DNA of 64,000 nucleotides, taken from contig JAULTD010000001.1 of the NCBI GenBank assembly GCA_038801785.1, forward strand, positions 441,568 to 505,567, given 5' to 3'. The position numbers were made by a program, and so were the translations under genes. Positions 14,557 through 63,821 of the stretch are shown one piece after another (position 1 is the stretch's first letter; each line of letters begins with the position of its first letter). The notes below the pieces were generated by a model. It made no database searches, had not been told where the DNA came from, and saw only the letters and a program-made list of their open reading frames with translations. The stretch is from Candidatus Methanomethylicaceae archaeon GD_Cm_T35_P0_bin.15. Lineage in GTDB: Archaea; Thermoproteota; Methanomethylicia; Methanomethylicales; Methanomethylicaceae.

Positions 14557-14559
14557 ACC

Positions 14560-32266: not shown

Positions 32267-32329
32267 AAGGTCACCTCAGACATTAATGGTGTAAAAGTAT
32301 TAAAAAGAACCTATGCTTGGATCTGAGCG

Positions 32330-32405: not shown

Positions 32406-32529
32406 TGCGGCGGTGGAGCCGATAAGCTGTGAGGTGGCAGGGCACCTTCAGTGGGGGCTACCCAAGATATTGAGTTGCTCCTTTTTAGTCTCAGGGCATC
32501 AGTGAGGATACGCAGTGTGCACGTCAACC

Positions 32530-33483: not shown

Positions 33484-33504
33484 AGTTTGATCGCTAGTCG
33501 CGCT

Positions 33505-34593: not shown

Positions 34594-34854
34594 GTCTTAA
34601 CCATCAAAGCATCAACAGATAAATAAAAGATCTAAATTGTTCTCCACCTATCTTTTGTGGTAAATCATTGATAGTTTTAGCCGAGACTTCATTTTACTCG
34701 ACTATGTTTTATGTCTTTGCATTTGTATAATCTCCCCGTTTTTTCAACAGGAGTTTTGTTACGCCAAGCCAGCCCTCGACTCTATACGATGCTGTAGAAA
34801 CATCAGATATGAGTTTATTAGGTGTTTTATGTTCGCAAGCTATGCTAGTCAAAT

Positions 34855-35949: not shown

Positions 35950-36255
35950 TTTTAATACTTTAATTAAGTTTTTTAAATATACGATATATCAAGATAAAGT
36001 TATCGTGGGTCTCCGGCATATATTGCATGTAATGAGGCGTTATGCAGAATAACCCTTCTTATGCAGCTCATAGTAGTAACACTAGACACGCGTACAGATT
36101 AGTTACAAATACAGGCACGAAAACGGAGGGTCTTTCTGCCAATAGAACGGCGCTCTCGACCCAATATCTATAAGATTAGAATTGCTAAACTAAAGAGATA
36201 GTTATAAAGGAGGGCATCATCTATAAATTTAGAGGCATAATTTAAATAAAAACAG

Positions 36256-38430
36256 TTATCCCCATATTTCGGAATATCCATTATCGTATAACTTATTTTC
36301 GACCTCTAGTCGATCAAGATAAACATTAAGCGGAAAGGCGACGGCTGTCGAATCTACACCTAATTTTTCAATAACGTTATAATACCTAAGGAAGACATGA
36401 CCAACTGTGCCGTCTTGTTCAAAAAAAGTTATGATATGACGGATGCTCGCAGGAGGGATGCCCCCCTGACTTATTAATCGAGAAGCACTGCCAGAATCAC
36501 AATAAATTATTGTTCCTTCAACCATCTGATTGCTTAACCAACTACTAGCACGAGATTCACCAGCATGGACATACCTTAAATGATAATCAGCGCCTGTGGA
36601 ACTCAACTGTACAGTACTAGGTTGGTTAAACAATTGATAGTGAAGACCACTAGTTACGGCAAAATAGGGAATTAAAACGAGAAGTATGATAAAGACGGCC
36701 CTCTTCATTTGGAATAATTTCGCTATTCGTATACCACCGAGAACGAAAAAAATAGATAGAACAGGCGTCATCATGAAAAAGAGACGGCCCATATCGTATA
36801 CTTTGAGACATAAAGGCACTACCACAGATACCATCAATATTGCAGAACAAACGCAAGATAAGATGAAAAAGCTAAAATCAAGTTTGGATTTTAGAAAAGG
36901 AGATTCAGATTTATGAGAAATAGGTAATGGATAACGCTTTATTAAAATACTAATTATACCTACCCCAATAAAGGCGATTGCCGCCCAAGAGGAGATGCCC
37001 TCTATCACGTACGGAATGCCTTTCGTAAATTTGGCGCCAAAAAGAGATGTCGCACCGCCGCGCGAACTAACATTAAAGAACTCATCGAAGCCCGTCAGAA
37101 TGCTATAAAAAGCGTGTGTGCCAACCTCAAGAGGGGCATAAGTAACATAACTGTACCAAATAAAGGCGATCACGGAACAACTGGCGATTACTTTTATTGA
37201 GATGGGATTTCCTGCATATTTTAGTGGGTTTGAGTCACGATCATCTAATTTACATGAGAGATCTAAGTTTGCTTTTCTAAAATTGTAAATAAGATTAACC
37301 GCTATCCACATAAATATAAGAATACCGAGGAAAATATAGGCGCTAGTATAATGCGACACAACGCAAGAAAAGGCAAAAATAACTAACAAAATGTTTTTTT
37401 TAAAGGTATGTATTTTATCATTAAATAGAACCAGAATAAAAATAGCAAAAAAGAGTATTGCAATATTAGTCCGGGCGCTAGCAGCGGTATTGAAATAAGC
37501 ATATTGTGAGATAAAAAAGAATGCGGCTAAATAAGAGTAAAAGTTTGTCAAGTATCTTCTCGATATGCTATACACCGCCAAGGGCGAAATTGAAAAGAGG
37601 AGGGGATACAATATTTTGAAAAGCGATTCGCTTTCCAGATTCAGAAACTCTAGGTAAACCGTGGGGAGCAGAGTAACGCTCAAGCAGGCATTTAGAATAT
37701 TGTTTTCGAACATTTCCCAGTGTTGAGCTTGGAAAGTTTTACGGAAGAAGTAGTATTCCCGATGTGTATCAATGCCGATTATAAAATCTGACCTTAAACT
37801 CAGCAATATCATAACAGAGATGCCTATGAGGAGCAGACTTAAGGGATAAACTCTGTCGGAAATCGATTTACGCCATACAGACATTGAGATTAAATAAAAA
37901 CATATAAGTAGTAGAAGGGCGATGGACATAACGTTATTATTATGTGTATTAAACACATAACTTCCAAAAACTCCGAGCAATGGAAATATACCAGCCACAA
38001 GTAAAGCGAATTTATCATTCATAGAAATGACTGGGTTAGGATAAGGCATACGATCTGCACCACGGTTTCGCAAATAAGAGAGAACCAGCAACACGATAAC
38101 AACCACATTAAATGGACCGAGGAGAGAGGATATAGCTAAAGGCGTGTTTGAAAATAAGGATCCTATCGAATTCATAATTAATCCAAAACATATCGAGAAA
38201 GCTATGCTTAGAGCTACGCTTAAGACGATTTTTTCAGTCACTGTAAGAGCGGGGATTTTTAGCCTAGAAAGAATAAGGGCGCCAGGGAGAATGGTTAAAA
38301 GAATAAAACCTGAGACCTGCCTAATAATTGGGATGTCAAAAATAATGCTGGCATTCGAAACTACTAAAAAGTTTAGTATAACTATTAAGTACATGCACGA
38401 TTTCGATTTCCAGCCTAATTTCAGCTTCAT
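36256..38430 (-). CDS. Large polytopic membrane protein (>=14 TM) with a C-terminal ~170-aa extracytoplasmic domain; candidate glycan polymerase or ligase
   Basis: 724 aa. Hydrophobic throughout the first ~550 aa. Located inside the glycan cluster. No WWDYG motif, so it is not called AglB. Confidence 0.45.
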   Translation of the reverse strand: MKLKLGWKSKSCMYLIVILNFLVVSNASIIFDIPIIRQVSGFILLTILPGALILSRLKIPALTVTEKIVLSVALSIAFSICFGLIMNSIGSLFSNTPLAISSLLGPFNVVVIVLLVLSYLRNRGADRMPYPNPVISMNDKFALLVAGIFPLLGVFGSYVFNTHNNNVMSIALLLLICFYLISMSVWRKSISDRVYPLSLLLIGISVMILLSLRSDFIIGIDTHREYYFFRKTFQAQHWEMFENNILNACLSVTLLPTVYLEFLNLESESLFKILYPLLFSISPLAVYSISRRYLTNFYSYLAAFFFISQYAYFNTAASARTNIAILFFAIFILVLFNDKIHTFKKNILLVIFAFSCVVSHYTSAYIFLGILIFMWIAVNLIYNFRKANLDLSCKLDDRDSNPLKYAGNPISIKVIASCSVIAFIWYSYVTYAPLEVGTHAFYSILTGFDEFFNVSSRGGATSLFGAKFTKGIPYVIEGISSWAAIAFIGVGIISILIKRYPLPISHKSESPFLKSKLDFSFFILSCVCSAILMVSVVVPLCLKVYDMGRLFFMMTPVLSIFFVLGGIRIAKLFQMKRAVFIILLVLIPYFAVTSGLHYQLFNQPSTVQLSSTGADYHLRYVHAGESRASSWLSNQMVEGTIIYCDSGSASRLISQGGIPPASIRHIITFFEQDGTVGHVFLRYYNVIEKLGVDSTAVAFPLNVYLDRLEVENKLYDNGYSEIWG

Positions 38431-38460
38431 GTTTGTAGATTAAATAAGTTTTCCCACCGT

Positions 38461-39642
38461 CTAACCATGTTCAACTATAACCGCTCGATACAGTTCTTCG
38501 ATCTCATTAAGAACGCTATTGAGAGAAAATTTAGAGCCCACCATGCTTCTTGAACGTTCCCCCATAATGCTACATTGTTCAGGATTACTTAGGAGATATG
38601 TCATTTGTGTACACAACTCGGAGACGCTACCATCTTTAAAAATTAACCCTGTTATGCCATCTTGTACAAGGTCTTGCATGGATTCTACATCTGACGCGAT
38701 AACAGGTCTAGAACAAGCATTAGACTCTAGCACCACCATAGGAAAAGCCTCATATCTGGAAGGCAACACTACAAACTCGGAATCAACGTATGCTTCGAGC
38801 TTTTCTCGACCATACAGAGGACCTGTCAACAATATAAAGCGATCCAACCCTAGGTAGTTGATTAAACCCTCGATTTCTGCACGATAGCCATCATCAGGAC
38901 CTGCAATCACAAGCCGAATATTTGTCAATCCTGTACGATTAATCAGTTGTGCGTAGGCCTTAATGAGAATATCAACACCTTTAATCCGATGAAGGCGGCC
39001 TATAAACAACACAATTCGTGCATCATTAGATAGACCTAATTTTCGCTTAAAGAAGTTCTTGGGAGGGAGTTCACCGTATGTCGAAAGATCGACGACATTA
39101 GGAATAATAGCTATTTTTTCTTTGGGCACCCCTATTTGCATATATTGCATTGCCTCAGAAGTTGTTAATGCAATACATCTCGAAGCCGATTTCATTATTC
39201 GATAACCGACTGAATAATCATAGATGGCTTTGAGCCATCCTTTCCCCATCATTCGTGGGAGCGATCCATGAGCCTGAAAGAGGAAGGGGATGCTATATTT
39301 CTTAGCGTAAAAAGCTATGAGATTCTGGAATGTCGGGTGTCCGTGCAAGTGAATCAAATCAAATCGCTCTGACCTGAAAGATGTGACCAACTCAGGGGTT
39401 ATGAAAAGATTCAAGTTTTTTACGAGCGCCATTGACAAATTACGCATGTACCGTACCTTCACTCCATCTATATTTTTTTTATTTTCAGGAATTCTAGTAA
39501 CGCGATCCTTGGCGTCAGAGGTAAAAACAGTTACATCATGCCCTCTTTGGCGTAATCCTTTAGAAATCAGATAGGCACTTGTCGCCACTCCTCCAAAGGA
39601 ATGAGCGGGAACAAAAAACGGTGCTACGTGAAGGATGCGCAT
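38461..39642 (-). CDS. Glycosyltransferase family 4
   Basis: 'EAFPMVVLESNACSRPVIASD' E-x7-E motif. GT-B N-terminal 'MRILHVAPFFVP'. Confidence 0.88.
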   Translation of the reverse strand: MRILHVAPFFVPAHSFGGVATSAYLISKGLRQRGHDVTVFTSDAKDRVTRIPENKKNIDGVKVRYMRNLSMALVKNLNLFITPELVTSFRSERFDLIHLHGHPTFQNLIAFYAKKYSIPFLFQAHGSLPRMMGKGWLKAIYDYSVGYRIMKSASRCIALTTSEAMQYMQIGVPKEKIAIIPNVVDLSTYGELPPKNFFKRKLGLSNDARIVLFIGRLHRIKGVDILIKAYAQLINRTGLTNIRLVIAGPDDGYRAEIEGLINYLGLDRFILLTGPLYGREKLEAYVDSEFVVLPSRYEAFPMVVLESNACSRPVIASDVESMQDLVQDGITGLIFKDGSVSELCTQMTYLLSNPEQCSIMGERSRSMVGSKFSLNSVLNEIEELYRAVIVEHG

Positions 39643-39689
39643 CCCTAGAACGATCTGACTCGATCGGCTCTAGTCATGACCTCGGCGCT

Positions 39690-39900
39690 AAACATCTACA
39701 CTAGTCCAGTAGTCCACATTCCATTGGGGCACACTGCCCACCACGGAGTAGGTTTCCTGCGGGGATGTGAAGGCATACTGAACGCTGACCCAAGAATCAG
39801 CAATAGTCGCATCGACTGAAGATTCGCTCGGTACTGCAGGGACGGCTCCAAGTGAGGCAATTACTGCAAGTATTAGTAAAAAAGAATACTCGCCTCAAAT
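39690..39900 (-). pseudogene. Decayed 5' fragment of a DUF1616-family gene (paralog of 45266-46294); start codon mutated ATG->ATT
   Basis: The translation '..LILAVIASLGAVPAVPSESSVDATIADSWVSVQYAFTSPQETYSVVGSVPQ' matches 'LALAVIASLGAVSAVQGAPADATIAGSWASVQDAFVSLQDAYAVAGSVPQ'. Nucleotide alignment confirms it. Confidence 0.65.
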
Positions 39901-39997
39901 TCAATCTACATTAGTAAGCGTACGTTTTTGAGCATAACCTTCAACAAAAAGATTTCTCAAGAAGGTCTTTTATCAATAGGGGCACCAAACTATAGTT

Positions 39998-41002
39998 TCA
40001 GGTTTTTAGGAGATTAACTAAAGAGCATTTTATCCAAGAAAGAGGTCTAATAGCCAAATGATCAAATAAGTAAGTGGGCAAATTTACGCCTGTACACAGC
40101 TTAGTTATTCTATCCATTTCATCTGCGTTCAGGATGATATTAGGCGCCTCAGCGTTTGCAGCAACCTGATCCTCTGTCAGTGCTGCGGGTATTGGGGTAA
40201 ACCCCTTGTTAATAATGTAGGCTAACGCTAGTTGAGCGATACTCACCCCTCTTTCCTCAGATAGATTGCCTAGAAACTCAAACAAGGGAGTCGCTTTTTT
40301 AAGAAGAGATTGACGATTTACAAAATTAAAGGCCCTCGCCCTATCTTTTGCTAAGCGTTTGGCGTCATATTTGCCAGTCAATATCTCTCCTGCCAAGGGG
40401 CTGTAGCTAATTATTTCAATAGAATGTTTCTTGCAGTAGGGAATTATCTGTTGCTCTGCTCGTCTTGATAGAAGATTATATTCTATCTCATTAGCTATAA
40501 TTTCGCAGGAGGTTAAGTTCTCCTGAGCCCGTTCTAAGAGATAGCTACAGAAATTACTCACTCCAATATATCTAATCTTACCTTTTTTAACTAAGTATTC
40601 TAGAGTGCGAAAGGTTTCCTGGAATCTTATGAGGGGATTGGGATAATGTATAAGATATAAATCAATGTAATTTATACCTAATCGCCTCAGGCTACCATCA
40701 ACGGCTTTCACAATGTTATGCGATCTTAAATTCCATGGAGCGACCTTTGATACAATAACATAATCTTCCCTTTTGTAAGGTTTTAAGGCGTTGCCAAGCA
40801 ATTCTTCTGCTTTACCATTGCCATATGTTTCAGCAGTATCAAAGAAGTTGATGCCCTCATCCATACAACGACGAACAACTCGAACAATGGTATCATCAGA
40901 ATAGCGAATGCCGTGACCCCAAGCGCTGCAACCAAACTGACCTGATCCTTGACCCACTAAAGAGGTTTTTAAATCACTCTTACCAAATTTGCGATATTTC
41001 AT
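39998..41002 (-). CDS. Aldo/keto reductase family oxidoreductase
   Basis: 'FFDTAETYGNGKAEELLG' and 'IRYIGVSNF' are AKR signatures. Confidence 0.88.
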   Translation of the reverse strand: MKYRKFGKSDLKTSLVGQGSGQFGCSAWGHGIRYSDDTIVRVVRRCMDEGINFFDTAETYGNGKAEELLGNALKPYKREDYVIVSKVAPWNLRSHNIVKAVDGSLRRLGINYIDLYLIHYPNPLIRFQETFRTLEYLVKKGKIRYIGVSNFCSYLLERAQENLTSCEIIANEIEYNLLSRRAEQQIIPYCKKHSIEIISYSPLAGEILTGKYDAKRLAKDRARAFNFVNRQSLLKKATPLFEFLGNLSEERGVSIAQLALAYIINKGFTPIPAALTEDQVAANAEAPNIILNADEMDRITKLCTGVNLPTYLFDHLAIRPLSWIKCSLVNLLKT

Positions 41003-41050
41003 GGTTATACGATTGTAGACGCGATATTACTTAAGCACGAAATGATCGTT

Positions 41051-42325
41051 TTACCGTCTTTGTATAGGAGTTCTTGAAGCTTTAGAGCGACTGTGACGCA
41101 GATTGTCTAATTCTTTTTCAAACATTTCAACGAGGACGCTCCAATCATTACTTTCGATAGCCCTGCGAGCTTTCTCGCCCTCTTGTGTAATTAATTTGCC
41201 TTTAAGAGCGTATGCCTTTTCCACGACTTCTTCTGGATGATCAATATAGACAATACCGCTGCTCTCCCCAAATTCTTTTTGTATGCCAGGCAGCCTTGTG
41301 GCAATCACGGGCTTACTAGCGGCCATATACTCATACATTTTAATAGGAACAATATTTTGCATTACTACTTCATCAAGATATGCAGGTAAAAGACAAATAT
41401 CTGATGCAGACAGATAATCAAGAATCAAGTCAAACGGTTGCTTTCCAACAAGGATTAAGCGGTCTGCAAGATCATAAATATCACGAATTTTACAGAGATC
41501 AAAATAAGCTTCCCCCTCTCCGACGATCAGCATTTTCAAATGGCTTTTTGAGCGTTTAGTGTTAGCTAGACTTAAGGCAACTTCTTTTAATCCAGAAAAG
41601 CTATAGAGCCACCCCATAAAAAAGAGGACGATGTCGGCATCATCGATCTTGTATTTTACTCTTATTTCAGCTCGTTTTTCTGGATTTGGTCTATAGCGGC
41701 TCAGATCCACACCGCCAGGGATAATGACGACTTTAGCTGGATCTGCGCCCATCAATCTTACATAATCTACAAGACCTTTGTTTATTACAATAATTCTGTC
41801 CGACCTTTTTAGCACTGTACTCTCAATCGCTTTAGCGAGCGGTTGCCCTATTTTCTGGGGCACCAATGTATGCAAATGGTCTATCAGATAGTAAACGAAC
41901 GGGATACTCTTTTTCTTACACATATGTGACGCCAAATATGCATTAAGTATACCAAACGAGACGACTACATCAGGTCTAAATTCGTTAATCTGTTTTTCAA
42001 GCTCCAAGCGATGACTAAGTACCAGTGAGATGTACTCCAATAGGGGTAGTTGCACTATTGCAGGTCTGATCAAATCGATCTTTCCTTGTGGGACTACTTT
42101 CCAGCATCCATTGAATACCTCGCGTTTCTTTAAAAAGCGGTATTTTTTGTTTCTCCATAGTATGTCATAATCAATAACACGGATGTAATGGCCTCTCTCA
42201 GATAATCTCTCCATAAGGTGATGTTGTTGATGGGGGCCTCTCTCGATCCAATTCGATTCTTGCAGAACGAGTATGCGCATCTCAGAATTCGCAGGAGCGT
42301 TGGATCTCTGTCCAGTTATTAGCAA
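41051..42325 (-). CDS. Glycosyltransferase family 4
   Basis: GT-B fold. 'YEYMAASKPVIATRLPG' C-terminal motif. 424 aa. Confidence 0.75.
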   Translation of the reverse strand: MLITGQRSNAPANSEMRILVLQESNWIERGPHQQHHLMERLSERGHYIRVIDYDILWRNKKYRFLKKREVFNGCWKVVPQGKIDLIRPAIVQLPLLEYISLVLSHRLELEKQINEFRPDVVVSFGILNAYLASHMCKKKSIPFVYYLIDHLHTLVPQKIGQPLAKAIESTVLKRSDRIIVINKGLVDYVRLMGADPAKVVIIPGGVDLSRYRPNPEKRAEIRVKYKIDDADIVLFFMGWLYSFSGLKEVALSLANTKRSKSHLKMLIVGEGEAYFDLCKIRDIYDLADRLILVGKQPFDLILDYLSASDICLLPAYLDEVVMQNIVPIKMYEYMAASKPVIATRLPGIQKEFGESSGIVYIDHPEEVVEKAYALKGKLITQEGEKARRAIESNDWSVLVEMFEKELDNLRHSRSKASRTPIQRR

Positions 42326-43292
42326 ACCAGCGGTAAGTCTTGTTCAAGCCCACTTTAAACTCAGTTGTAGGATTATAATGCAATATCTTCTTTGCTTTCT
42401 CTATAGAGGCTAGCAACCTGAACTTCTGATCCCAGTCTCTTCTCTCCCTATATATAATTCCAGCATGATTTCCAGTAATCTCGTTTACCCAAGCAGCTAG
42501 ATCGTTTATCTTTATTTCGCGATTTGTGCCGAGATTGATTGCTTCACCAATAGCATCCTCGTAATAGGCCATTGCCAACAAGCCGTTTACGATATCACCC
42601 ACGTAAGTGAAATCACGAGTTTCTTCTCCAGTCCCTGTAATAGGCAAAGGTTGCCGATTCATGGCCCAATAGAAAAAGTTCGGGATTACATTACGATATT
42701 TGCCTGGAACCTCTCCCGGACCATAAGAGTTGAAGAATCTAGCGTTCACTATAGGCAGATCGTACAAGTTATAGTAACAATTAGTGTAGAGCTCACCTAA
42801 CATCTTAGTGACTTGATATGGCGTATACAATTTCATGGAAACATCGTGCTCTTCGAAGGGCATCTTTGAATCCGAACCGTAAATACCGCAACCGGAGGAA
42901 GAGTATATGAAACGCTCCACTCCAACAAGATGTGAGTATTCGAGCATCCTCAAAATCCCCATTCCGTTGACCATTAAATCTGTCTCAGGATTATCGACCG
43001 AATTCTGATTGGCAAAATGGGCCGCCAGATGGTATACGATTTCAGGTTTTCTTTTGAACGCCCGTCTGAGGTACTCTTCGTCCAATACACTGCCTTTAAT
43101 AAACCGTATCTTTTGTCCACGGGGAACATTCCACTCGTATGAGGAAGAAAGGTCATCCAAAATGATGACTTCTTTTGTATCCAAGGTGTTGAGTGTTCTG
43201 ACCAAATTTCCTCCTATAGCACCTGCTCCGCCTGTTACCAGAACAGTCTTTCCTTTAAAGGAGTTTTTTACTTCTTCCATGTTAATCACCAA
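42282..43292 (-). CDS. NAD-dependent NDP-sugar epimerase/dehydratase (extended SDR)
   Basis: 'VLVTGGAGAIGGNLV'. Catalytic 'YQVTK'. Confidence 0.85.
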   Translation of the reverse strand: MVINMEEVKNSFKGKTVLVTGGAGAIGGNLVRTLNTLDTKEVIILDDLSSSYEWNVPRGQKIRFIKGSVLDEEYLRRAFKRKPEIVYHLAAHFANQNSVDNPETDLMVNGMGILRMLEYSHLVGVERFIYSSSGCGIYGSDSKMPFEEHDVSMKLYTPYQVTKMLGELYTNCYYNLYDLPIVNARFFNSYGPGEVPGKYRNVIPNFFYWAMNRQPLPITGTGEETRDFTYVGDIVNGLLAMAYYEDAIGEAINLGTNREIKINDLAAWVNEITGNHAGIIYRERRDWDQKFRLLASIEKAKKILHYNPTTEFKVGLNKTYRWFANNWTEIQRSCEF

Positions 43293-44226
43293 TCCTGTAG
43301 TACCATCTCATCCAATCTACAGTTCTTCGAATGCCTTCCTCAGGAGGCACAGTAGGATTGTGTTTCAAATCACGTATTGCTTTCGAACAGTCAATGGTCT
43401 TTACCTTCGTAGTAAAGGGCTCACTCTCATTATACGAAACAAGCGAGTCATCCCTGCCAACAATCTTTAGCACTATGTCAGAATAGTCCTCAATACTCCG
43501 CTCCCATTCAGGTTTGCCTGCCACATTGTAGACTTCACCGGGTATGAAATTATTAATGATGTTTGCAAAAGTCATGCAGGAATCTTCGACATAATCTATA
43601 ATTCTCTTATGACCTTTGAAGACAACATACGGCTTGTTAAATAACGCGTGGTATATGAACTTGGGTATAAACCCCCTATAAGGAGTGTAATGCTCGCCAG
43701 GCCCATAGCAGTTCACAGGACGAACTCTTACAATCTCGGTTCCAAACATGCTGGCAGAGTTCATGCACATCAACTCGCCCGCCCATTTGGTAATGGCATA
43801 ATCATTCATCTGATAAGTTTCCTTGATTGGCTTGCACTCCATTATATCTTCGGTCATTACATCGTTATAATCGCCGTAAACCTCTGCTGAAGAAAAGAAG
43901 ATCATCCTAAACCTGAGTTTTTCCTGCAATCTAAGCATATTCTTTGTACCAATAACGTTGGTCTCCCAGAGATTTTCATAATAATCTTCGCCATTCCATC
44001 GACCGTACTCGGCTGCCAAGTGATAGACGTAATCAAACCGGTCTTTTTCAAAGACTTTTTCAATTTGTCGAAAATTACGTACATCTGCGCGTATGTAGTT
44101 ATCGCGATCATTATTGAAAAGATCGAGTGCGATAACACTATGACCGCGCTTTCTTAACTCATTTACTAAATTTGTACCAATAAAGCCTGCTCCACCGGTA
44201 ACGAGTATCCGTTGAGTATCCATCAT
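43282..44226 (-). CDS. NAD-dependent NDP-sugar epimerase/dehydratase (extended SDR)
   Basis: 'ILVTGGAGFIGTNLV'. Catalytic 'YAITK'. Overlaps the downstream epimerase by 11 nt. Confidence 0.85.
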   Translation of the reverse strand: MMDTQRILVTGGAGFIGTNLVNELRKRGHSVIALDLFNNDRDNYIRADVRNFRQIEKVFEKDRFDYVYHLAAEYGRWNGEDYYENLWETNVIGTKNMLRLQEKLRFRMIFFSSAEVYGDYNDVMTEDIMECKPIKETYQMNDYAITKWAGELMCMNSASMFGTEIVRVRPVNCYGPGEHYTPYRGFIPKFIYHALFNKPYVVFKGHKRIIDYVEDSCMTFANIINNFIPGEVYNVAGKPEWERSIEDYSDIVLKIVGRDDSLVSYNESEPFTTKVKTIDCSKAIRDLKHNPTVPPEEGIRRTVDWMRWYYRIGD

Positions 44227-44236
44227 ACGAACCTCC

Positions 44237-53498: not shown

Positions 53499-54569
53499 TC
53501 AGCTCGAGCTTATTATCTCGGTTATCCTCTCGCCGCTCTTCCCGTCGCCGAACGGGTTGACCCACGAGCGGTCCCTGTCAAGCATCATCCCGGCGCACTC
53601 CAGAATCTTCTCAGGGCTGGTGCCGGCGAGCATGTTCGCGCCGGCCTCAACGGTCTCCGGCCTCTCCGTGTTGTACCGCAGCGTGACGCACGGCACCTTC
53701 AGGATGCAGGCCTCCTCCTGCACTCCCCCCGAGTCGGTGAATATGAGCCCGGCGCCGCACTCCAGCCTCAGGAACGAGAGGTAGTCGACGGGCTCGGTGA
53801 TCGCTATGTTGCCGGTCTTTACCGTTATGCCGAACTCCCGGAGCCTCTTCCGCGTCCGGGGGTGCATCGGATAGATAATCTTCTTCCCGAACTTCCCGGA
53901 GACGAGGTCCAGCCCCTTCAGTATGCTGGCGAGCCGCTCGGGGTTGTCGACGTTCTCCTGCCGGTGCATCGTCATAAGGAAGTACCCCTCGGGGTCCATC
54001 AGCCCGGCTCCCGCGCCGCTCTCCTCCGCCAGCCTGAGGTTCTGCCGGACGGCATCGACGACCGTGTTCCCGGTCACGAAGACGCCCTTCTCGATCCCTT
54101 CCCTGGCAAGGTTGGCGCGGGCGGTCTCGGTGGGCGCAAACAGCAGGTCGGAGACGTGGTCTGCCGTCACCCGGTTTATCTCCTCAGGCATGGTCCGGTC
54201 GTAGCTCCTCAGCCCCGCCTCGACGTGCCCGAGCCGGATGCCGAGCTTGACCGCCGCGAGGGCCCCGGCCAGGACCGTATTCGTGTCGCCCTGCACCAGC
54301 GCGATGTCCGGCTTCTCCTCCTTCAGGGGCTTCTCCATGCCGATCAGCATCCTGCCGGTCTCCTCCGCGTGGCTCCCCGAGCCGACGTTGAGGTTGTACC
54401 TCGCCCCGGGCAGCCTGAGCTGGGAGAAGAAGACCGCGTCCATGTTGTATGAGTAGTGCTGCCCGGTGTGGAGGATGAAATAGTCCAGACCGGCGCGTTC
54501 GCAGGCCCTGATCACGGGGGACATCTTTATTATCTCGGGCCTGGTCCCGAGGATGATCGCGACCTTCAT
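53499..54569 (-). CDS. wecB: UDP-N-acetylglucosamine 2-epimerase (non-hydrolysing)
   Basis: 'MKVAIILGTRPEIIKMSPVIRA' and 'HTGQHYSYNMD' match the WecB/MnaA signature. 356 aa. Confidence 0.92.
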   Translation of the reverse strand: MKVAIILGTRPEIIKMSPVIRACERAGLDYFILHTGQHYSYNMDAVFFSQLRLPGARYNLNVGSGSHAEETGRMLIGMEKPLKEEKPDIALVQGDTNTVLAGALAAVKLGIRLGHVEAGLRSYDRTMPEEINRVTADHVSDLLFAPTETARANLAREGIEKGVFVTGNTVVDAVRQNLRLAEESGAGAGLMDPEGYFLMTMHRQENVDNPERLASILKGLDLVSGKFGKKIIYPMHPRTRKRLREFGITVKTGNIAITEPVDYLSFLRLECGAGLIFTDSGGVQEEACILKVPCVTLRYNTERPETVEAGANMLAGTSPEKILECAGMMLDRDRSWVNPFGDGKSGERITEIISSS

Positions 54570-54636: not shown

Positions 54637-55131
54637 CTATATGGCGCCTTCCTCGGGGGTCAGGATGTTCACCCTCAGCGCCACGGTCTCGTCGGTGCAG
54701 AGACGCTCGAAGAGCTCGTCATATTCTTTCCTCACGGACTTCGTCTCGAAGTACCGGTTGTATTCGATGACCCGGTCCCGGCACCCGATACCCGAGTCGT
54801 TGAAGAAGTCGCGGGTGATGGGCAGTATCTTGTCAGGGCGGTTGCACGGGATGAGGAAGAACTCCTCGACTATCCGGTCGGTCTCGAGGACCCTGTAGCA
54901 GATGATGACGCCTTTCTTGGCGTAGATGCCGCCGTTGCCGTTACCGCTGCAGTTGCCGTTACCGCTGCAGTTGCCGTTACCGCTGCAGTTGCCGTTACCG
55001 CTGCAGTTGCCGTTACCGCTGCCGTTGACTCTGCCGCTGTTGGCGCTACACCCCAAAGAGTTGCCGTTTCCACTCGGGCAGTTGCTCTCAACCTCGGTCA
55101 TTTCCCTCTCACCTTGCTCCTGTTGCTCCAA
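54637..55131 (-). CDS. Hypothetical protein with an N-terminal Cys/Asn/Gly hexapeptide tandem repeat (NGNCSG x4-5) and a ~100-aa C-terminal domain of unknown function
   Basis: An 18-nt perfect tandem repeat at 54937-55026 encodes the repeat. An (AATCC)n pentamer repeat sits immediately upstream (55143-55185). Confidence 0.45.
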   Translation of the reverse strand: MEQQEQGEREMTEVESNCPSGNGNSLGCSANSGRVNGSGNGNCSGNGNCSGNGNCSGNGNCSGNGNGGIYAKKGVIICYRVLETDRIVEEFFLIPCNRPDKILPITRDFFNDSGIGCRDRVIEYNRYFETKSVRKEYDELFERLCTDETVALRVNILTPEEGAI

Positions 55132-55176
55132 TTCCTTGGTTTAATCCAATCCAATCCAGTCCAATCCAGATTCAAT

Positions 55177-55545
55177 TCAGTTCGTTATGACGAATACCCA
55201 CCTGCTCATGCGGGAGAGCATGTCGGTCCCGAGCCAGAAGATGTATTGGTCGCTGTTGATCCACTTCCTCACTGCAGGGAACACCCTCGCTGTCGCGTTC
55301 CTGAGCATACCCAGCGCCCTCTCCATCCCTCTGCGGAATATCTTCTGGCCTATGGTCAGTCCAATTCGCTCAGCTACGCTGCCGATCATCTCGACGAGCC
55401 TCTGGTTCACTATCTGTCCCCGCAGCCTCGCATATGATAGAGCAGCCCTAAAGAGGCCCCGCTGGACAGGAGGGAGCCTGCGCACGGTTCCGTTCCGCGA
55501 TCCCCGTCTCCAGAGTGATAGTATTGCAGCGTAGCTGATAGTCAA
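55177..55545 (-). CDS. Hypothetical protein
   Basis: 122-aa ORF in operon context. No motif recognised. Confidence 0.3.
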   Translation of the reverse strand: MTISYAAILSLWRRGSRNGTVRRLPPVQRGLFRAALSYARLRGQIVNQRLVEMIGSVAERIGLTIGQKIFRRGMERALGMLRNATARVFPAVRKWINSDQYIFWLGTDMLSRMSRWVFVITN

Positions 55546-55764
55546 CCTGGTGCATCTCGACTTTTTGTTATGGATTGCTCAGAATTTAAAAGCCTTGTGA
55601 AGGGCACTTTTGTTCCACACTAACCTGCATGACTTTCTTTGAACGATCGTTAAACTGTAGAATTTTTGTGTGTATTGCTACGGAGGCAGTAAAAAAGAGC
55701 GTCCGCGCTTCCGGGCAGACGTGGAAAGGGGGGCAGTATTTAATATTGACTGGAGACTATCTGA

Positions 55765-56508
55765 CTACCTCTTGACCACTCTTTTATAGATCCCCAAGAG
55801 TAGCCCGGCGACTGATTCTGGCATATGCTCTCTAGGGAGGCTCTCCAACACAGTTCCATCGTACCGAACTACCTTGCATCCGGATGCCAAAGCTTCAAGT
55901 GCGGCCTTGCTGGTATCATTTATCAGCCTGCCGCCAATTGATTTCACGTCAATGTAGTACTCGTACTCTGAGAAGATCTGAGGGAGGCGGGAGTGGGGTA
56001 TCGGCGATGCAAACCGGTCATGGAGCGTCAGGCTGAGACCAAGTTCTTTTGCGTACTGCCGGGCTAGATCATCAGCCCCGTAGGAGAAAGAGAAGGCGGT
56101 TGCCGGCACATGCTGCCGCCTATCGTAGAAGAGCCAAGTCTCTATCGGGATTGGAAGATAGATCGTACCTTCAGGGGCCCCTTCTAATAGATCCCGCGTG
56201 GAGACGAGGATAGCATCGGCATCGCGGTGATATGCGCGCTTCTCTCCCCACATGCCGCGGATGTCCGACCCGTGGTAGTGAAAAACAACAGGCTTACTAG
56301 GGGCTAGGGATTTAATTGCGCGGCCGATGCCTTCACAGGAATGTATGTGAGTTATATCATAGAAGGGGGCCAGGAGGAGGGATGCGATGCGGAAGAGTGT
56401 TAAAGAGGGAAGACAGAGGGATCCCTGATCATCCCAAGGAGGTTTCTTAGAGGCTAGAACAGTAGATTCGACCGAGCCCTTGAGAATGCGCGAAAAGATC
56501 GAGGCCAC
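55765..56508 (-). CDS. Glycosyltransferase-like protein (GT-B C-terminal half-like)
   Basis: 'SKAALEALASGCKVV' resembles the GT1/GT4 C-terminal nucleotide-sugar binding region. 247 aa. Confidence 0.4.
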   Translation of the reverse strand: MASIFSRILKGSVESTVLASKKPPWDDQGSLCLPSLTLFRIASLLLAPFYDITHIHSCEGIGRAIKSLAPSKPVVFHYHGSDIRGMWGEKRAYHRDADAILVSTRDLLEGAPEGTIYLPIPIETWLFYDRRQHVPATAFSFSYGADDLARQYAKELGLSLTLHDRFASPIPHSRLPQIFSEYEYYIDVKSIGGRLINDTSKAALEALASGCKVVRYDGTVLESLPREHMPESVAGLLLGIYKRVVKR

Positions 56509-56537
56509 CCCTGCGGTATCGCCGACGTGAAGGATCC

Positions 56538-57131
56538 TTAAACCGAAACCCTCCTTTGGATTATGTGGAGCGCCCTAGGTTCGACTTTGGGTTTACTGCC
56601 AACCGATGTGAGTTCTGGTCCTTCCTCTTCTAGGAGGTGTACACCTCTACTGAAGCATTTGGAACGCTGAAAAAGATCGTCTGAATCGGTCTTAGGGGGG
56701 CGGTTCTCCCAAGCATAAGCCACCTCTGTCCAGCCAGCCAAGTTTTCGAGGATCGCGTTGTAGGCGGTATCGCCGAGGATATGGGAGGGCAGATCGAGGC
56801 AGAGCACTGCTTCGGTCTCGATGCATGTGGGTTTGACGGCGCCTTGGCATATGAGTTCCCCTTCCTTGAGCTTGGCACGGTTGCGCTCGATTATTGTCGG
56901 TGATATGTCGATGCCAACATATCTCCTGCAGGCGGGGGAATCGCTGAAGCGGAAGGTGAGGTCCCCATAATTGACATCCGAGATTTCCTCGGGAGTACGG
57001 TCAAGGATACAGGACCTCTTCCTCAAGCCGATAGTGCCGTGGGAGCCTTGACCGGAGTTGCCGCCTTCACGGTAGCGCTTTTCCCAATAGCTCGTTTTTC
57101 TCCCACCATCAATTTGGGCATACCTCTGCAA
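56538..57131 (-). CDS. Probable SAM-dependent methyltransferase
   Basis: N-terminal 'SYWEKRYREGG' and 'YVGIDISPTIIERNRAKL' (post-motif-I block). Confidence 0.4.
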   Translation of the reverse strand: MQRYAQIDGGRKTSYWEKRYREGGNSGQGSHGTIGLRKRSCILDRTPEEISDVNYGDLTFRFSDSPACRRYVGIDISPTIIERNRAKLKEGELICQGAVKPTCIETEAVLCLDLPSHILGDTAYNAILENLAGWTEVAYAWENRPPKTDSDDLFQRSKCFSRGVHLLEEEGPELTSVGSKPKVEPRALHIIQRRVSV

Positions 57132-57438
57132 GCAATCCGATTATAACCATTTTTGTTTCTGGTTTAAGGTGCAATCAGATCAGGATTACAAAAATAATAT
57201 ACTCAACCTCATTTTTCATGCCGTATCCAAAAAGCAATCGCCAAGCTAGGGAGTGTGAAGACTGATGATGGCCTTTACTGTGGGCTTAGGACCTCTAATA
57301 CCTTCCGATCGCTCGATACCAGCGGCAGAATGAGGTCAGTTCAGTTTATGGAAAAGATCACATCTTCGCATCTCCTTTTCTTCAATCAGAAACCTGAATC
57401 GTGCTTAGATCGCAGGCGCAACCTACCCGGCGGACGCT

Positions 57439-59163
57439 TCACTCCTCAGCGCCGCCGCCCGCCAGCCGGGCCTCCACCTCGGGGGCATACATCTTGGGAC
57501 CGTCCCGGATCAGCTTCAGCTCGTACGCCATAACCGGCTTCACCACGGTCTTCAGGAGTCCGGACTTTCCAAGCATCAGGTCGGCGTTCTCCAGATCGAC
57601 GCCCCTCACCGCGCCGACGATGGGCGCCACGGTGAGGAAGATGGCCAGGAAGGACACTGCCCCCACGGCGAGGTTGAGCACATTCCCCAGCTGGACGAAG
57701 AGGTGGACGGCCACCACCGGGGCGGTCGCTATCCCTGAGGCAACGTATATCCTCCAGATCTTCCCCATGTTCAGGCCCAGCCCGTACCTGTTCCCCGCAA
57801 GGTAGAGGCCGTACACGGTATAGGCGAGGCTCGCCAGCAGGTAGATTATGATCGTCCCGGTAACGCCGATGAGCTGGGTCGCCAGCGGGGCGAGGGGGAT
57901 GAAGAGACCTGCGCGGAGCGCGTGCATCCTCAGGGTGAGCCTCGTGGCCCCTATCCCGTTGAACATGCTCTCGAGGACGGAGTAGCCGATCCCGGTGAAG
58001 AGGAAGAGGACGGTGTAGAGCGAGAAGTAGAAGGGCGCGAGGGTGTAGCTCGCCCCGTACAGGATATACACCAGCTCGTCGGAGAATATTATAGCCATGG
58101 TGGAGACGGGGACGAGGATGAGCGAGCCGTACCTGACCGTGAGGTCGAAGAACTTCTGAAGCTCCGAACGTTCCTTTGAAGGGTCTATCCTCGAGAAGGC
58201 GGGCACGAGCGCAAGCGCGATCGCATAGTTGAACATGGTCAGGATCGCGGAGAGGCTGATGGTCGCGTTGTAGTTGCCGATATCGAAGTTGGAGACGAAG
58301 AACGCGAGGAGGAGGAACTGGTACTGGTTGACCAGCATGATCAGGATCTGGCAGAAGTAGAGCGGGAACCCGTAGATGATCATCGGCTTGAGGTCGCAGA
58401 GGCCGTAGTGGAAGCGGGCGCGGAAGCCATAGCCGCCCTTAGGCGGCGGGTCCTGCGCCTCTGCCTGCAGGCTGCCGGGCGGAGACGCCTTGAGGGTCCT
58501 GAGGTACCGATCCACCCAGTAGAGGAGGGTCAGCCCGACGATCGCCCCGGCCAGGTAGCCCAGCACGTGGCCCGCGACCGCGCCTGCGACCCCGAAGCCC
58601 AGCAGTATGAGGAGGGGCGCCGTGACGACTTTGGTTATTGACATGAAGAGGTTGATGAGGACGCTCCTGCCCATCATGTTCAGCCCCATCAGTGCGTAGA
58701 CCCCGGGGGAGGTGATGGACTGGAGGAGGATTGTGATAGAGGCGATGCTGACGAGGAAGCTCATGTCGGGGCGGTTCAGGAGGTAGGTGGCGAAGAACCA
58801 GGAGAAGGTGAAGACTAGGAGGAAGACGAGAACCCCTATGAGGAACCTGAGCCCCATGCCGGCGCGGATGGTCCGGGCGATAAGGCTCTCGCGGCCGTCC
58901 GACCGCAGCTTCGCGGGGAACCTTATGAGCGCCTGGTCCAGGCCGAGCCCCATCAGGTAGTTCATTATGAGGGGTACGGTCAGCGCCAGGGTGTAGAGGC
59001 CGTAGCCGTCGGGGTCGAGGAGCCTGGCGATCAGGATGGAGGCGATGGCGGCGAGGACGTTGGTGGCGGCGTCCCCGATCATGAGGGCGAAGGCCCCCCT
59101 CGCAGAGTCTTCCGCTATGGAGGTAAGCTTCGTGCTGATGCCGTTGATCGCCGGCTTTGCCAT
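57439..59163 (-). CDS. Wzx-like oligosaccharide flippase (MOP superfamily)
   Basis: Start set at the internal ATG (MAKPAINGIST...). The 82 codons upstream are R/P-rich. ~14 TM segments. Confidence 0.6.
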   Translation of the reverse strand: MAKPAINGISTKLTSIAEDSARGAFALMIGDAATNVLAAIASILIARLLDPDGYGLYTLALTVPLIMNYLMGLGLDQALIRFPAKLRSDGRESLIARTIRAGMGLRFLIGVLVFLLVFTFSWFFATYLLNRPDMSFLVSIASITILLQSITSPGVYALMGLNMMGRSVLINLFMSITKVVTAPLLILLGFGVAGAVAGHVLGYLAGAIVGLTLLYWVDRYLRTLKASPPGSLQAEAQDPPPKGGYGFRARFHYGLCDLKPMIIYGFPLYFCQILIMLVNQYQFLLLAFFVSNFDIGNYNATISLSAILTMFNYAIALALVPAFSRIDPSKERSELQKFFDLTVRYGSLILVPVSTMAIIFSDELVYILYGASYTLAPFYFSLYTVLFLFTGIGYSVLESMFNGIGATRLTLRMHALRAGLFIPLAPLATQLIGVTGTIIIYLLASLAYTVYGLYLAGNRYGLGLNMGKIWRIYVASGIATAPVVAVHLFVQLGNVLNLAVGAVSFLAIFLTVAPIVGAVRGVDLENADLMLGKSGLLKTVVKPVMAYELKLIRDGPKMYAPEVEARLAGGGAEE

Positions 59164-59237
59164 GGCCCCTTGCGCCTGCCGACGTTGATCCTCCGGGCTC
59201 TGCTGCCCCGGATCCTCAGGCCGCGGTTTCATAGCAA

Positions 59238-59450
59238 TCATGCGGCCCCGAAAGACGTCACTATGAGGTATGACCTCAGGAGGGCGGCGGCGACGAACAG
59301 GAGGGCAACGGCGATCGCGATCATCCTGAGCCGCCCCCTGTCGATGCAGATGCTGGAGCCGTACTCTGACACTATCTCGTATGTGGCGAGGAGGATCAGC
59401 GCAGTCCATGTGAGCAGGAGGTTCGCGTCGAAGGGGGTAAGGGGGATCAT
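59238..59450 (-). CDS. Small 2-TM membrane protein preceded by a GGAGG Shine-Dalgarno sequence and an ~85-nt polypurine leader
   Basis: 70 aa. 'ggaggcaagg ATG'. Hydrophobic helices. Confidence 0.4.
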   Translation of the reverse strand: MIPLTPFDANLLLTWTALILLATYEIVSEYGSSICIDRGRLRMIAIAVALLFVAAALLRSYLIVTSFGAA

Positions 59451-59576
59451 CCTTGCCTCCTCTCTCCTTTCCCTTTCCCTCTCCCTCTCCCTCTCCCTTC
59501 CCCTCTCCCTTCCCCGTCTTCTTCCTCTTTCTCTTCCCCCTTCCTGTTGGCGTTCATATCGTATCCCGGATCGGGG

Positions 59577-60038: not shown

Positions 60039-61069
60039 GGCGCACCTGCAGGCCTGAACATCCGGAACGTTGCCACTATAGTCTTGCCGTCGGGCAGCAG
60101 ACCGCTCCTCTCTATGGATACGTGCTCCCCGGAGGACCTGGCCAGGGCGAGGGCGATCGAGCTGCAGAGGGGGCATCCCAGCGATCCGCAGATGTAGGGC
60201 AGGCTGCACGCCTCCCTGCAGAGGCCGCTGTATACCGATTTTTTGAGACGCACGGTCGCCGTCCCGCCGCTAATCGTCATACGGGTATCCCCGGCGATCT
60301 CTAGGTCCCTGAATAGCTCCTCCAGCCTCCCGGGGAGGGCGGCCAGTTTCGTCTGGGAGAAGGGCGCCCCCATCTCGTCCTCCAGGAGGTTGGCGAGGGC
60401 GAGCCCCGGCGGGGCCAGACAGATACCGGGGGGGTCCCCGGCCACCGAACTCCCGCCGGCGGCCTTTGCAGGGGGGGCGGGCGAGGCGGGGACGAAGACG
60501 GTCCCGCCGCGGATGTCCCGCGCGTGGGCCGGCGGGAGGTAGACGGCGGTTCCGTTGAGATTAAGGTCTGCCAGCATCCGGTCTATGTCCACCAGAAGGG
60601 GGAGCGTGCTGGCGTCGAGCAGGATGGCCTTGGCGTATCTCCCCGGCATCACTAGGAGGAGGACCGCCCCCCAGAAGACGAGGCCCAGTCCGATCATCGC
60701 ATGGAGCGAGGAGGCGGTCAGCGTGGAGATGGCGAGGGCAGTGGCGCCTGCTAGGATGAGGATCGCCGCGGCGGCCCGTGAGGGCCTGCGCCTCGACTTG
60801 CGGAGGGCGAGCTTCAGGGCGGACCTCTCCCTCTCCAAGCGGTCTATCCGCTCCTGCAGGCTGGCTGTGGCAGCCGATGTGTGGGCGTACTCGTGGTCTG
60901 CGACCCGGGGGCCGCCAGCGAGCCGGGGCCGTGATTGCGTTGATGGCGGCGGTGTTGGTGTTGTTGGTGATGGTGATGGTGATGGTGATGTTTGTGGTGA
61001 TGGCGGTGTTGGTGTTGTTGGTGATGGTGGCTGCTGCCCTCTTGTCTCCGGACCCGGTTCCGCAGTCAT
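60035..61069 (-). CDS. Membrane protein with a Pro/Thr/Ser-rich N-terminal repeat, a coiled-coil, one TM and a C-terminal Cys-cluster domain
   Basis: 'TTPTPPSPQTSPSPSPSPTTPTPPPS' is encoded by a (GGTGDT)n repeat at ~60940-61030. C-terminal 'CREACSLPYICGSLGCPLCSS'. Confidence 0.5.
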   Translation of the reverse strand: MTAEPGPETRGQQPPSPTTPTPPSPQTSPSPSPSPTTPTPPPSTQSRPRLAGGPRVADHEYAHTSAATASLQERIDRLERERSALKLALRKSRRRPSRAAAAILILAGATALAISTLTASSLHAMIGLGLVFWGAVLLLVMPGRYAKAILLDASTLPLLVDIDRMLADLNLNGTAVYLPPAHARDIRGGTVFVPASPAPPAKAAGGSSVAGDPPGICLAPPGLALANLLEDEMGAPFSQTKLAALPGRLEELFRDLEIAGDTRMTISGGTATVRLKKSVYSGLCREACSLPYICGSLGCPLCSSIALALARSSGEHVSIERSGLLPDGKTIVATFRMFRPAGAP

Positions 61070-62354: not shown

Positions 62355-63152
62355 TCAGTCTAGGCATGGCTTCCCGCCCCCCCCGCCCTCCATCAGCCGG
62401 ACGAGGGAGAGGTACTTCTCCTTGGGGCACCTGAAGAACGCCTCGCAGTACTCGACATTGCTCCCGGCACCCATGGAGCGGTAGAGGTTCAGCCCGCGTA
62501 TCTTGGACGGGTAGTCTATGACGCAGACCTGGCTCCTGTGCTCTCCTATGGCGCGCACCTTTATGTCCATCAAGCCGCTTATGTCCACCAGCACGTTGGG
62601 GAGGAGCGGTGACCAGACCTCGTACCCGTAGTAGTCAGCGTCCCCTTCCCACCTCCCCAGGGCCTCAGCCACTATCCTGATCGTCGCCATGTGGTCGGGG
62701 TGGTTGTCTATGAAGAAGGGCGCGTAGACCGACCTCGGACGGTACTCGTCGAGGACCCTGAGGACGGCGCCGACTGACGAGCTGTCGCACCTGAGCGAGG
62801 CGTCGGGAAACCCTAGGAAGGTGGCCTCTTCGCTGCCGATGCCCAGGACGCGGAGCGCCGAGAGGGCCTCTTCCCGCCTTATCCCCGCTAGCTCGTCGGG
62901 CCTGAACGCATCGTTCCCCATCCCCCCGTCCGTCATGTAGACGACCCTGACCCGGGACCCGCTCCTAGCGTACCTGTGCATCGTTCCCCCGCAGCCTATG
63001 ACGTCGTCGTCCGGGTGGGGGGAGACGACGAGCACTCTGCCGCGATCCGAGTCGGGGTCCTCCAGCCTCGCGACGGTGGTCTGCCCGCGGACGGCTGAGA
63101 GGAGGGCGATGATGCCGGCCTTCGTCCTTGCGAGCCGGTCTATGCCAAACAT
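62355..63152 (-). CDS. PIG-L/LmbE-family N-acetylglucosaminyl deacetylase
   Basis: 'VVSPHPDDDVIGCGGT' zinc-binding signature. 'DNHPDHMA'. Confidence 0.88.
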   Translation of the reverse strand: MFGIDRLARTKAGIIALLSAVRGQTTVARLEDPDSDRGRVLVVSPHPDDDVIGCGGTMHRYARSGSRVRVVYMTDGGMGNDAFRPDELAGIRREEALSALRVLGIGSEEATFLGFPDASLRCDSSSVGAVLRVLDEYRPRSVYAPFFIDNHPDHMATIRIVAEALGRWEGDADYYGYEVWSPLLPNVLVDISGLMDIKVRAIGEHRSQVCVIDYPSKIRGLNLYRSMGAGSNVEYCEAFFRCPKEKYLSLVRLMEGGGGGKPCLD

Positions 63153-63821
63153 GATCAGATGATCAGCCCCCTGGCCGGTCGGCGGCTGCCGTCTTGCTCA
63201 TTGCTCATTACGCAATACTCATCCCTCATCCTTCATCGCTCATCCCTCATCCCTCATCCTCATCCTCATCCTTATCCTTATCCTCATCCTCATCCTCATC
63301 GCTCATTGGGCAGCCCGCGCCGGCCGGCTCCCCTGCGGCGGATGGAGGGCGCCCGTATCGCTGAGCACTCTGCCGCGAACGACGCGATCCGCCAGCTCAG
63401 GGTAGCAGATCCCGTCCGGTTGTACCCGCCGGTGCGATCGCCTTCCCCATGCGCCCTTCTGCTCCCCCCGCCATCCATCCCCGTCGACCCCGCGGATGCT
63501 GGCGGAGCCGGCGTCGGGGGCGATGTCAAGGGTGATGCGGGTGCCGGCATACGTTCTGATGCGGATGATGACACGGGCAGGGGCAGGGGCGCAGACGCGG
63601 ATCCCGGCGGCAGTACTGGCGATGCCGGCACAGCTACGGGTACCTGCGATTCCCTTCCGTTCTCTGATGCCGTCACCGGCTTTCCTTCCTGCGCCTCCGC
63701 CGGCGCCCCCCTCAGGGTCCCAGGCACTGCCCCTGCTCCCTCCGCCGCGACCCCTCCCGGCTCTGCCCCCTGCGGACCCTTCCCAGCCCGCCGGGGCGCC
63801 GTCATATGTGTGCGGTTTTCA

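Follow-up and report, generated by a model that had tools for sequence, protein, structure and literature searches.

A probable orphan gene with an apparently young in-frame 18-nt minisatellite, directly upstream of wecB in a Candidatus Methanomethylicaceae archaeon

Can a short tandem repeat inside a small archaeal gene act as a switch or as a metal-binding segment, or does it merely lengthen the protein? This question is raised by a locus of Candidatus Methanomethylicaceae archaeon GD_Cm_T35_P0_bin.15. We analysed 64,000 nt of its contig JAULTD010000001.1 (positions 441,568 to 505,567), here called the window, and all coordinates are those of the window. A minus-strand open reading frame (ORF) directly upstream of wecB encodes 154 amino acids (aa) and carries an array of Cys/Asn/Gly/Ser hexapeptides near its N-terminus; a run of pentamers lies upstream of its start codon. 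A first-pass annotation had suggested metal binding or a repeat-number switch for the hexapeptides and a second, slipped-strand switch for the pentamers. The explanation that we favour, as probable though by no means certain, is an orphan gene with a young in-frame minisatellite, encoding a cytoplasmic protein. The features concerned are the following.

54637..55101, minus strand: protein-coding gene of 154 aa from the ATG at 55101, with its stop codon at 54637-54639 (ORF list, codon score and gene call of the Joint Genome Institute, JGI)
54928..55071, minus strand: in-frame 18-nt minisatellite of eight units, forming most of a disordered tail of about 58 aa (unit identities and Tandem Repeats Finder array)
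54946..55017, minus strand: four perfect copies of GGTAACGGCAACTGCAGC, encoding GNGNCS (pattern search and register table)
54640..54927, minus strand: C-terminal orphan domain of 96 aa with four Cys, predicted to be alpha/beta (codon score and AlphaFold2 single-sequence model)
55109..55113, minus strand: Shine-Dalgarno-like GGTGA, 7 nt before the ATG (read from the sequence)

Tandem Repeats Finder reported the 18-nt array at 54934-55027, with 5.2 copies and 98% matches. On the minus strand, which is the coding strand, the four perfect copies of GGTAACGGCAACTGCAGC are followed by a fifth with two mismatches (16/18) at 54928-54945. The chance expectation for such matches was 0.02, and five or more were reached by none of 100 shuffles. 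The 18-nt periodicity is perfect over 54934-55022, that is, over 89 nt or 4.9 copies. Read in register from 55071 down to 54928, the eight units encode GNGNSL (12/18 identical nucleotides), GCSANS (9/18), GRVNGS (13/18), four times GNGNCS (18/18 each) and GNGNGG (16/18). Among background in-frame 18-mers from native genes, 0.2% had an identity of 12/18 or more. The first perfect unit begins at codon 29 in phase 0, so the array is in frame. Thus the coding repeat of four identical units plus degenerate copies is real, and the (NGNCSG)n peptide described in the first-pass annotation is (GNGNCS)4 in another register.

The gradient of identity along the array suggests an order of events. The three units on the N-terminal side would be the oldest, decayed copies, and the four central units, since they are still identical, appear to have expanded or been homogenised recently. 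Successive in-frame duplications of 18 nt, by replication slippage or by unequal recombination between adjacent direct repeats, could have built the tail in this way. We also considered a role of the 18-mer at the DNA level, as a CRISPR array, iterons or a replication origin. This was rejected: the array is in phase with a reading frame for which the coding evidence is good, it lacks spacers, and the 18-mer GGTAACGGCAACTGCAGC was found nowhere else in the window. The predicted RNA structure of the repeat region could not be told apart from that of shuffles (z = -1.4).

Codon usage was scored with a log-odds model trained on 15 native genes of the window with Pfam support, from which the 154-aa ORF was excluded. 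The ORF scored 0.645 per codon, compared with a native-gene mean of 0.648 (standard deviation 0.144). The 96 C-terminal codons outside the repeat scored 0.83, with a G+C content at third codon positions (GC3) of 0.89. The mean score of 40 shadow ORFs was -0.33, and all antisense frames of the ORF scored 0.10 or less. G+C contents at codon positions 1, 2 and 3 were 0.47, 0.46 and 0.86 for the ORF and 0.59, 0.43 and 0.91 for wecB. An ORF of 294 aa on the plus strand over the same DNA (codon score -0.47, no family) was rejected as a gene, as were the other overlapping ORFs, which had non-coding codon scores and no family.

The start codon is more likely the ATG at 55101 than an alternative TTG at 55131, which would give 164 aa (ORF 54637..55131). 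The JGI annotation of a nearly identical contig (L082, described below), made independently, places the start at the same ATG, and GGAGG or GGTGA is found at comparable distances before many genes of the window. With a native-like codon score and GC3, GGTGA before its ATG and an alpha/beta domain modelled for its last 96 aa, the 154-aa ORF is very probably a true protein-coding gene, its codon usage adapted to the host. The codon score and the start motif bear out the earlier description of a protein-coding gene with an in-frame Cys/Asn/Gly/Ser hexapeptide repeat.

The predicted protein has two parts. Residues 1-58, the tail, contain 17 Gly, 15 Asn, 10 Ser and 6 Cys (10% Cys). The Cys residues are at positions 8, 18, 33, 39, 45 and 51, with C-x5-C spacing in the repeat, and four more in the folded part bring the total to 10 Cys in 154 aa. 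No C-x-C or C-x-x-C motif, His or acidic residue was found in the tail. In an AlphaFold2 model made without an alignment, residues 1-62 were disordered, with a predicted local distance difference test score (pLDDT) of about 27 (25-31 in the tail). The C-terminal 96 residues alone, modelled from the single sequence, gave a pLDDT of 65.8 and a predicted template modelling score of 0.55. The predicted order of elements is a long beta-hairpin, beta, alpha, beta, alpha, beta. This moderately confident alpha/beta model suggests that the C-terminal part could fold as a compact domain of 96 residues.

As the first-pass annotation had stated, there is no signal peptide. The N-terminus is acidic and hydrophilic, the mean hydropathy of the first 25 aa is -0.5, and the maximum 19-residue Kyte-Doolittle window is 0.9. 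A search of the 154-aa protein for a signal peptide, transmembrane segment, twin-arginine translocation (Tat) motif, pilin-type signal or C-terminal sorting signal found none. Because it has no hydrophobic segment, the product is predicted to be a small cytoplasmic protein. The protein has six N-x-S sequons (N26, N32, N38, N44, N50 and N101). In archaea, the lipid-linked glycan is flipped across the membrane before N-glycosylation occurs on the outer side (PMC8241124). Use of these sequons in glycosylation is unlikely for a cytoplasmic protein, since it has neither a signal peptide nor a transmembrane segment while glycan transfer is extracellular.

No relatives of this protein were found. Its only Pfam profile match was to TrAA12-like (PF22807), between residues 19-80 and profile positions 383-446 (E = 9.8e-6). 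The score of 24.6 bits is below the gathering cut-off of 30.9 bits, the match is confined to the low-complexity tail, and the C-terminal domain by itself gave no Pfam match even at E up to 10; membership in this family was therefore rejected as a compositional artefact. NCBIfam, PADLOC and PHROGs contained no match to the 154-aa protein. Two matches in the PDB were also rejected: a "lysis protein" matched through an engineered (GS)n linker, and a kinesin through an N-rich low-complexity stretch. A word-indexed search of 5.8 billion clusters returned nothing for the C-terminal domain and nothing for the repeat-bearing N-terminus. An exhaustive phmmer (HMMER) search over 1.84 billion representatives returned two matches only, at E about 1e-4; both were giant, internally repetitive proteins and were rejected as relatives.

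Scans of genomes and viral contigs with the 154-aa protein gave no match, and a scan of metagenome contigs recovered only the same locus on another contig (L083). A Foldseek fold search with the model of the C-terminal domain had no match, neither the 154-aa nor the 164-aa product had a record with exactly its sequence, and no paralog was found in the window or in any compared locus. We also examined 65 wecB loci of other archaea and bacteria, where the gene upstream of wecB is usually of the glycosyltransferase family 2 (GT2) type; none had a comparable ORF, or any N/G/C-rich ORF, at this position. (The commonest gene there encodes a GT2 dolichyl-phosphate-type glycosyltransferase with the motif "..IPAYNEE..".) The 154-aa gene is thus a true orphan, restricted to its lineage. 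The earlier remark that the C-terminal 100 or so residues were unrecognisable holds at the level of both sequence and fold, and the homologs with variable repeat counts that it proposed to look for did not appear in protein, genome, metagenome or viral searches.

Three public contigs allowed a comparison between strains. An identical wecB protein was found on two of them (L081 and L082), and the third (L083) is the one from the metagenome scan with the ORF protein. Over 9465 nt, L081 (Logan, SRR25293830) shows 100% identity to the window, and it ends inside the 18-nt array, its positions 1-30 being window 54934-54963. Such a break is expected of small-k assembly over a periodic tract of 89 nt; it is uninformative on copy number and is not evidence of heterogeneity. 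L082 (JGI 3300001095) and L083 (Ga0067045_1027364, a contig of 223 kb) are 99.85% and 99.80% identical to the window, respectively. They share single-nucleotide polymorphisms (SNPs), so that there are two haplotypes in all, 0.15-0.2% diverged.

The copy number of both arrays was equal in the window, L082 and L083, which is a weak test with two close haplotypes and consensus assemblies. The ORF is intact in both haplotypes. Within it, a single SNP (54795 A>C) causes the non-synonymous change S103A, by which NDS becomes NDA. Over 12.4 kb the haplotypes differ by a single indel, an insertion of 3 nt at 60475 within a G-rich tract. A repeat with a 27-nt period at 60941-61031 contains two SNPs (60964 and 60966). 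This comparison gives, weakly, no support for hypervariability. The first-pass annotation had named an invariant repeat number and a well-characterised homolog as findings that would speak against its reading: the copy number proved invariant in the few strains compared, and no well-characterised homolog was found.

The pentamer array that had been annotated upstream of the gene as (AATCC)n is present, and it is short and imperfect. Two features are relevant here.

55143..55167, minus strand: imperfect pentamer run, (AATCC)n on the plus strand, with degenerate GAATT/GAATC units on to about 55181 (Tandem Repeats Finder, pattern search and register table)
55140..55145, minus strand: ATTAAA, the sole TATA-like A/T hexamer 5' of the ATG, at about -45 to -40; a putative promoter element (comparison of upstream regions)

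Tandem Repeats Finder gave 5.2 copies with 90% matches at 55143-55168. On the coding strand, from 55167 down to 55143, the run reads GGATT GGACT GGATT GGATT GGATT, so that only three perfect GGATT units are contiguous. It lies 42-66 nt 5' of the ATG, within the 75 nt that separate the ATG from the stop codon of the preceding ORF (55177). At the heads of transcription units in the window, TTTATA-like boxes are often found 28-45 nt before the start codon. Compared with these, ATTAAA, which overlaps the last pentamer unit and matches the local TTTATA consensus weakly, is a plausible but weak promoter. The pentamer run does not separate promoter elements: both this hexamer and the Shine-Dalgarno-like motif lie on its 3' side.

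Intergenic microsatellite-like tracts, similar or longer, are also found elsewhere in the window, among them tracts before rpoB and before flippase and PIG-L genes.

3353-3380: (AGAAG)5.6, an intergenic microsatellite-like tract
14558-14627: polypurine (GGGAGA/GGAAAG)n tract immediately 5' of rpoB, the gene for the RNA polymerase B subunit
59458-59539: polypurine (GGGAGA/GGAAAG)n tract directly upstream of the Polysacc_synt flippase gene
63218-63306: (GATGAG)/(GGATGAG) hexamer/heptamer tract, about 14 units on the minus strand, between the upstream ORF and the PIG-L-family deacetylase gene (62355..63152)

Since similar tracts precede other genes of the window, they seem to be characteristic of this genome as a whole and not a device specific to the 154-aa ORF. 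The tract upstream of the flippase gene is identical in the second haplotype. The tract at 63218-63306, which is longer than the (GGATT)n run, is covered by one strain only.

The gene next to the ORF in the 3' direction is wecB.

53499..54569, minus strand: wecB, UDP-GlcNAc 2-epimerase (Pfam Epimerase_2, 375.5 bits, residues 23-353)

It lies 67 nt 3' of the ORF in the same orientation, and the 67-nt junction contains no oligo-T run and has an ordinary predicted structure (z = -0.2). After wecB follow, tightly packed, genes for DUF1616, DUF7982, DUF8044, a 696-aa protein, DUF4350, MoxR and DUF58 (gene table of L081), then a second DUF1616 gene and a GT2 gene, and then a glycan island of low GC3. 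Between about 26 kb and 63 kb, almost every gene lies on the minus strand. The ORF is probably cotranscribed with wecB and the DUF1616/MoxR/DUF58 genes; it may begin a wecB operon or lie within a longer transcription unit. The ORF had been placed at the head of a glycan cluster next to wecB. It is directly upstream of wecB and may head a wecB-DUF1616-MoxR-DUF58 operon; at a larger scale it is embedded in about 35 kb of co-directional surface/glycan genes, which include a flippase gene on its upstream side and glycosyltransferase genes on its downstream side.

The closest relatives of the wecB product are only 59-69% identical and come from Methanosarcinales, Bathyarchaeia, Thermoproteota, Chloroflexota and Clostridia; this scatter is consistent with frequent horizontal transfer. 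The glycan-biosynthesis island (about 27800-44230) has a GC3 of 0.35-0.48 vs 0.8-0.9 in native genes, and was probably acquired horizontally. It encodes a flippase, a polysaccharide deacetylase, two glycosyltransferases of family 4 (GT4), an aldo-keto reductase and two NAD-dependent epimerases/dehydratases; a third such epimerase/dehydratase gene is just outside it (26742-27695). The window itself is archaeal chromosome. It carries genes for EF-1alpha, for RNA polymerase A'/A'' and for a B subunit that is unsplit, as well as a tRNA with an intron. The B subunit (11221-14556, minus strand) is a single protein of 1111 aa and not split into B'/B'', a state that speaks against the lineages Methanomicrobia and Halobacteria. 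The tRNA, of 134 nt at 15038-15171 (minus strand) and presumably intron-containing, was found with Rfam (52.6 bits); ARAGORN found no tRNA in the window.

Upstream, the ORF adjoins a patch of low G+C content (55177-57400; 45-56% G+C, GC3 0.58-0.72), beyond which is the flippase gene (59409..57439). The ORFs of this patch (57131..55177) encode 122, 247 and 197 aa and belong to no family, except for a weak partial match to a GT4 N-domain. They look like decaying foreign genes. The JGI calls for them are shorter (70, 162 and 162 aa), and the ORF of 197 aa has, by eye, a degenerate methyltransferase-like motif (VGIDISP).

Several observations weigh against our explanation of the locus as an orphan gene with a young in-frame minisatellite. 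One of the 40 shadow ORFs, antisense to a transporter gene, scores 0.66, similar to the 154-aa ORF. No canonical TTTATA box was found upstream of the ORF. The ORF borders the patch of apparently decaying ORFs (55.2-57.4 kb) and could be a remnant. Its sole SNP is non-synonymous. The role proposed for the tail (see below) is drawn from composition alone. A rival explanation is a non-functional ORF with a neutral minisatellite, left over from a decaying gene or arisen by chance in GC-rich DNA. The lack of homologs anywhere, the compositionally foreign and apparently degraded neighbourhood and the nature of the only SNP would all fit, and GC-rich genomes do yield long spurious ORFs, such as the antisense ORF of 294 aa. 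Yet the native-like codon signature is in exactly one frame and includes the C-terminal 96 codons (0.83), a Shine-Dalgarno-like motif is at the start, the model suggests a foldable domain, and the ORF is intact in both haplotypes; we think this possibility unlikely. Somewhat better placed, though still unlikely, is a metal-binding or metallochaperone tail, in which the six Cys thiolates of the tail, perhaps with the four of the domain, would bind a soft metal or an iron-sulphur cluster. In its favour, the protein has ten Cys among its 154 aa, six of which recur at regular intervals within a flexible stretch of Gly and Asn, and an anaerobic archaeal cytoplasm keeps thiols reduced. Against it are the absence from the tail of C-x-C and C-x-x-C motifs and of His and acidic residues, the Cys density of only 10%, the lack of any match to a metal-binding family in Pfam, NCBIfam or the PDB, and the lack of metal-related genes nearby.

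The strict periodicity of Cys every six residues and the six N-x-S sequons, with glycan genes nearby, could also point outside the cell or to a modified peptide: an exported acceptor of N-glycosylation, a disulfide-laddered beta-helix, or a precursor like those of ribosomally synthesized and post-translationally modified peptides (RiPPs). Insect antifreeze proteins form a disulfide-laddered beta-helix with Cys every six residues. We regard this group of explanations as hardly credible here: the protein has no signal peptide, transmembrane segment, Tat motif, or pilin-type or C-terminal sorting signal; the tail is predicted to be disordered; no RiPP-modifying enzymes are encoded nearby; in the other haplotype, S103A abolishes the single sequon of the folded domain; and archaeal N-glycosylation is extracellular and follows flipping (PMC8241124). 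A contingency locus is the remaining explanation, with slippage in the 18-nt array, the pentamer run or both varying the protein or the expression of the ORF and wecB and so diversifying a surface glycan. The 89-nt perfectly periodic tract is intrinsically prone to slippage, the pentamer run abuts the sole TATA-like element, the locus heads cell-envelope genes, the usual class of bacterial phase-variable loci (PMC11868660), and indel variability of simple sequence repeats (SSRs) is higher near protein termini (PMC3315296). However, 18 nt is a multiple of three, which makes on/off switching by frameshift impossible. The pentamer run has three perfect contiguous units, and mutability climbs steeply only for long tracts (PMC3315296); moreover, the run is 5' of the putative TATA element instead of between promoter elements, and similar or longer tracts precede the rpoB, flippase and PIG-L genes. 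Copy numbers are equal in the window, L082 and L083. We therefore think a contingency locus improbable, and the fuller claim that, in an archaeon, slippage at (GGATT)n, the 18-nt array or both produces reversible and heritable variation in the gene at the head of a wecB operon more improbable still. Neither switch proposed in the first-pass annotation is supported: the 18-nt repeat keeps the frame, the pentamer run is short, imperfect and 5' of the TATA-like element, and the variation of copy number across strains that had been suggested as a check was not seen in the three spanning assemblies (two haplotypes).

The orphan gene with a young in-frame minisatellite, borne by an uncultivated archaeon, would then encode a two-part protein, with an intrinsically disordered tail of about 58 N/G/S/C-rich residues and a compact alpha/beta domain of 96 residues. 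Because the 18-nt unit keeps the frame, only the length of the tail would be altered: gain or loss of units would change it in steps of six residues, with no on/off effect. The (GGATT)n run would be one of several short, imperfect microsatellites of intergenic or promoter regions and no demonstrated regulator. The product would probably be an accessory cytoplasmic factor of the wecB cell-envelope operon, because the gene is most likely transcribed with wecB and the downstream DUF1616/MoxR/DUF58 genes. To judge from its composition, the tail might serve as a flexible, thiol-bearing linker or as a binding segment of low affinity.

The protein and the repeat are new but unremarkable, an ordinary orphan with a recently expanded low-complexity tail. 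They provide a clean small example of how in-frame minisatellites may add disordered sequence to new proteins, and an example of how small-k assemblies, such as the Logan contig L081, break at such arrays. The locus would matter more only if read-level heterogeneity in copy number were linked to expression of the wecB operon. If it were a contingency locus after all, it would be among the first archaeal systems of SSR-driven phase or length variation, acting through a protein whose fold has not been seen before and whose repeat is Cys-periodic.

In-frame coding minisatellites and low-complexity regions are a known kind of sequence in prokaryotic proteins (PMC6821194, PMC3315296). The array described here resembles them in that its unit is a multiple of three, it is near a terminus, it encodes a biased, disordered segment, and it combines apparently young perfect copies with old decayed ones. 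It differs in that its host protein has no family at all and that no other protein scored with the N-terminal query containing GNGNCS. Cys-rich metal-binding tails and metallothioneins likewise have multiple Cys in a flexible Gly-rich stretch; unlike metallothioneins, this tail has C-x5-C in place of C-x-C or C-x-x-C, a low Cys density, no family match and no metal-related context. With the SSR contingency loci of bacteria, such as the surface and lipopolysaccharide genes of Neisseria and Haemophilus (PMC11868660, PMC5084427), the locus shares repeats in the 5' coding and upstream intergenic regions and a position at the head of envelope/glycan genes. Repeat-mediated phase variation is essentially undocumented in archaea, a gap stated in PMC11868660. 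The locus differs from these bacterial loci in its frame-neutral unit, its short and imperfect pentamer run, the lack of observed copy-number variation and its archaeal host.

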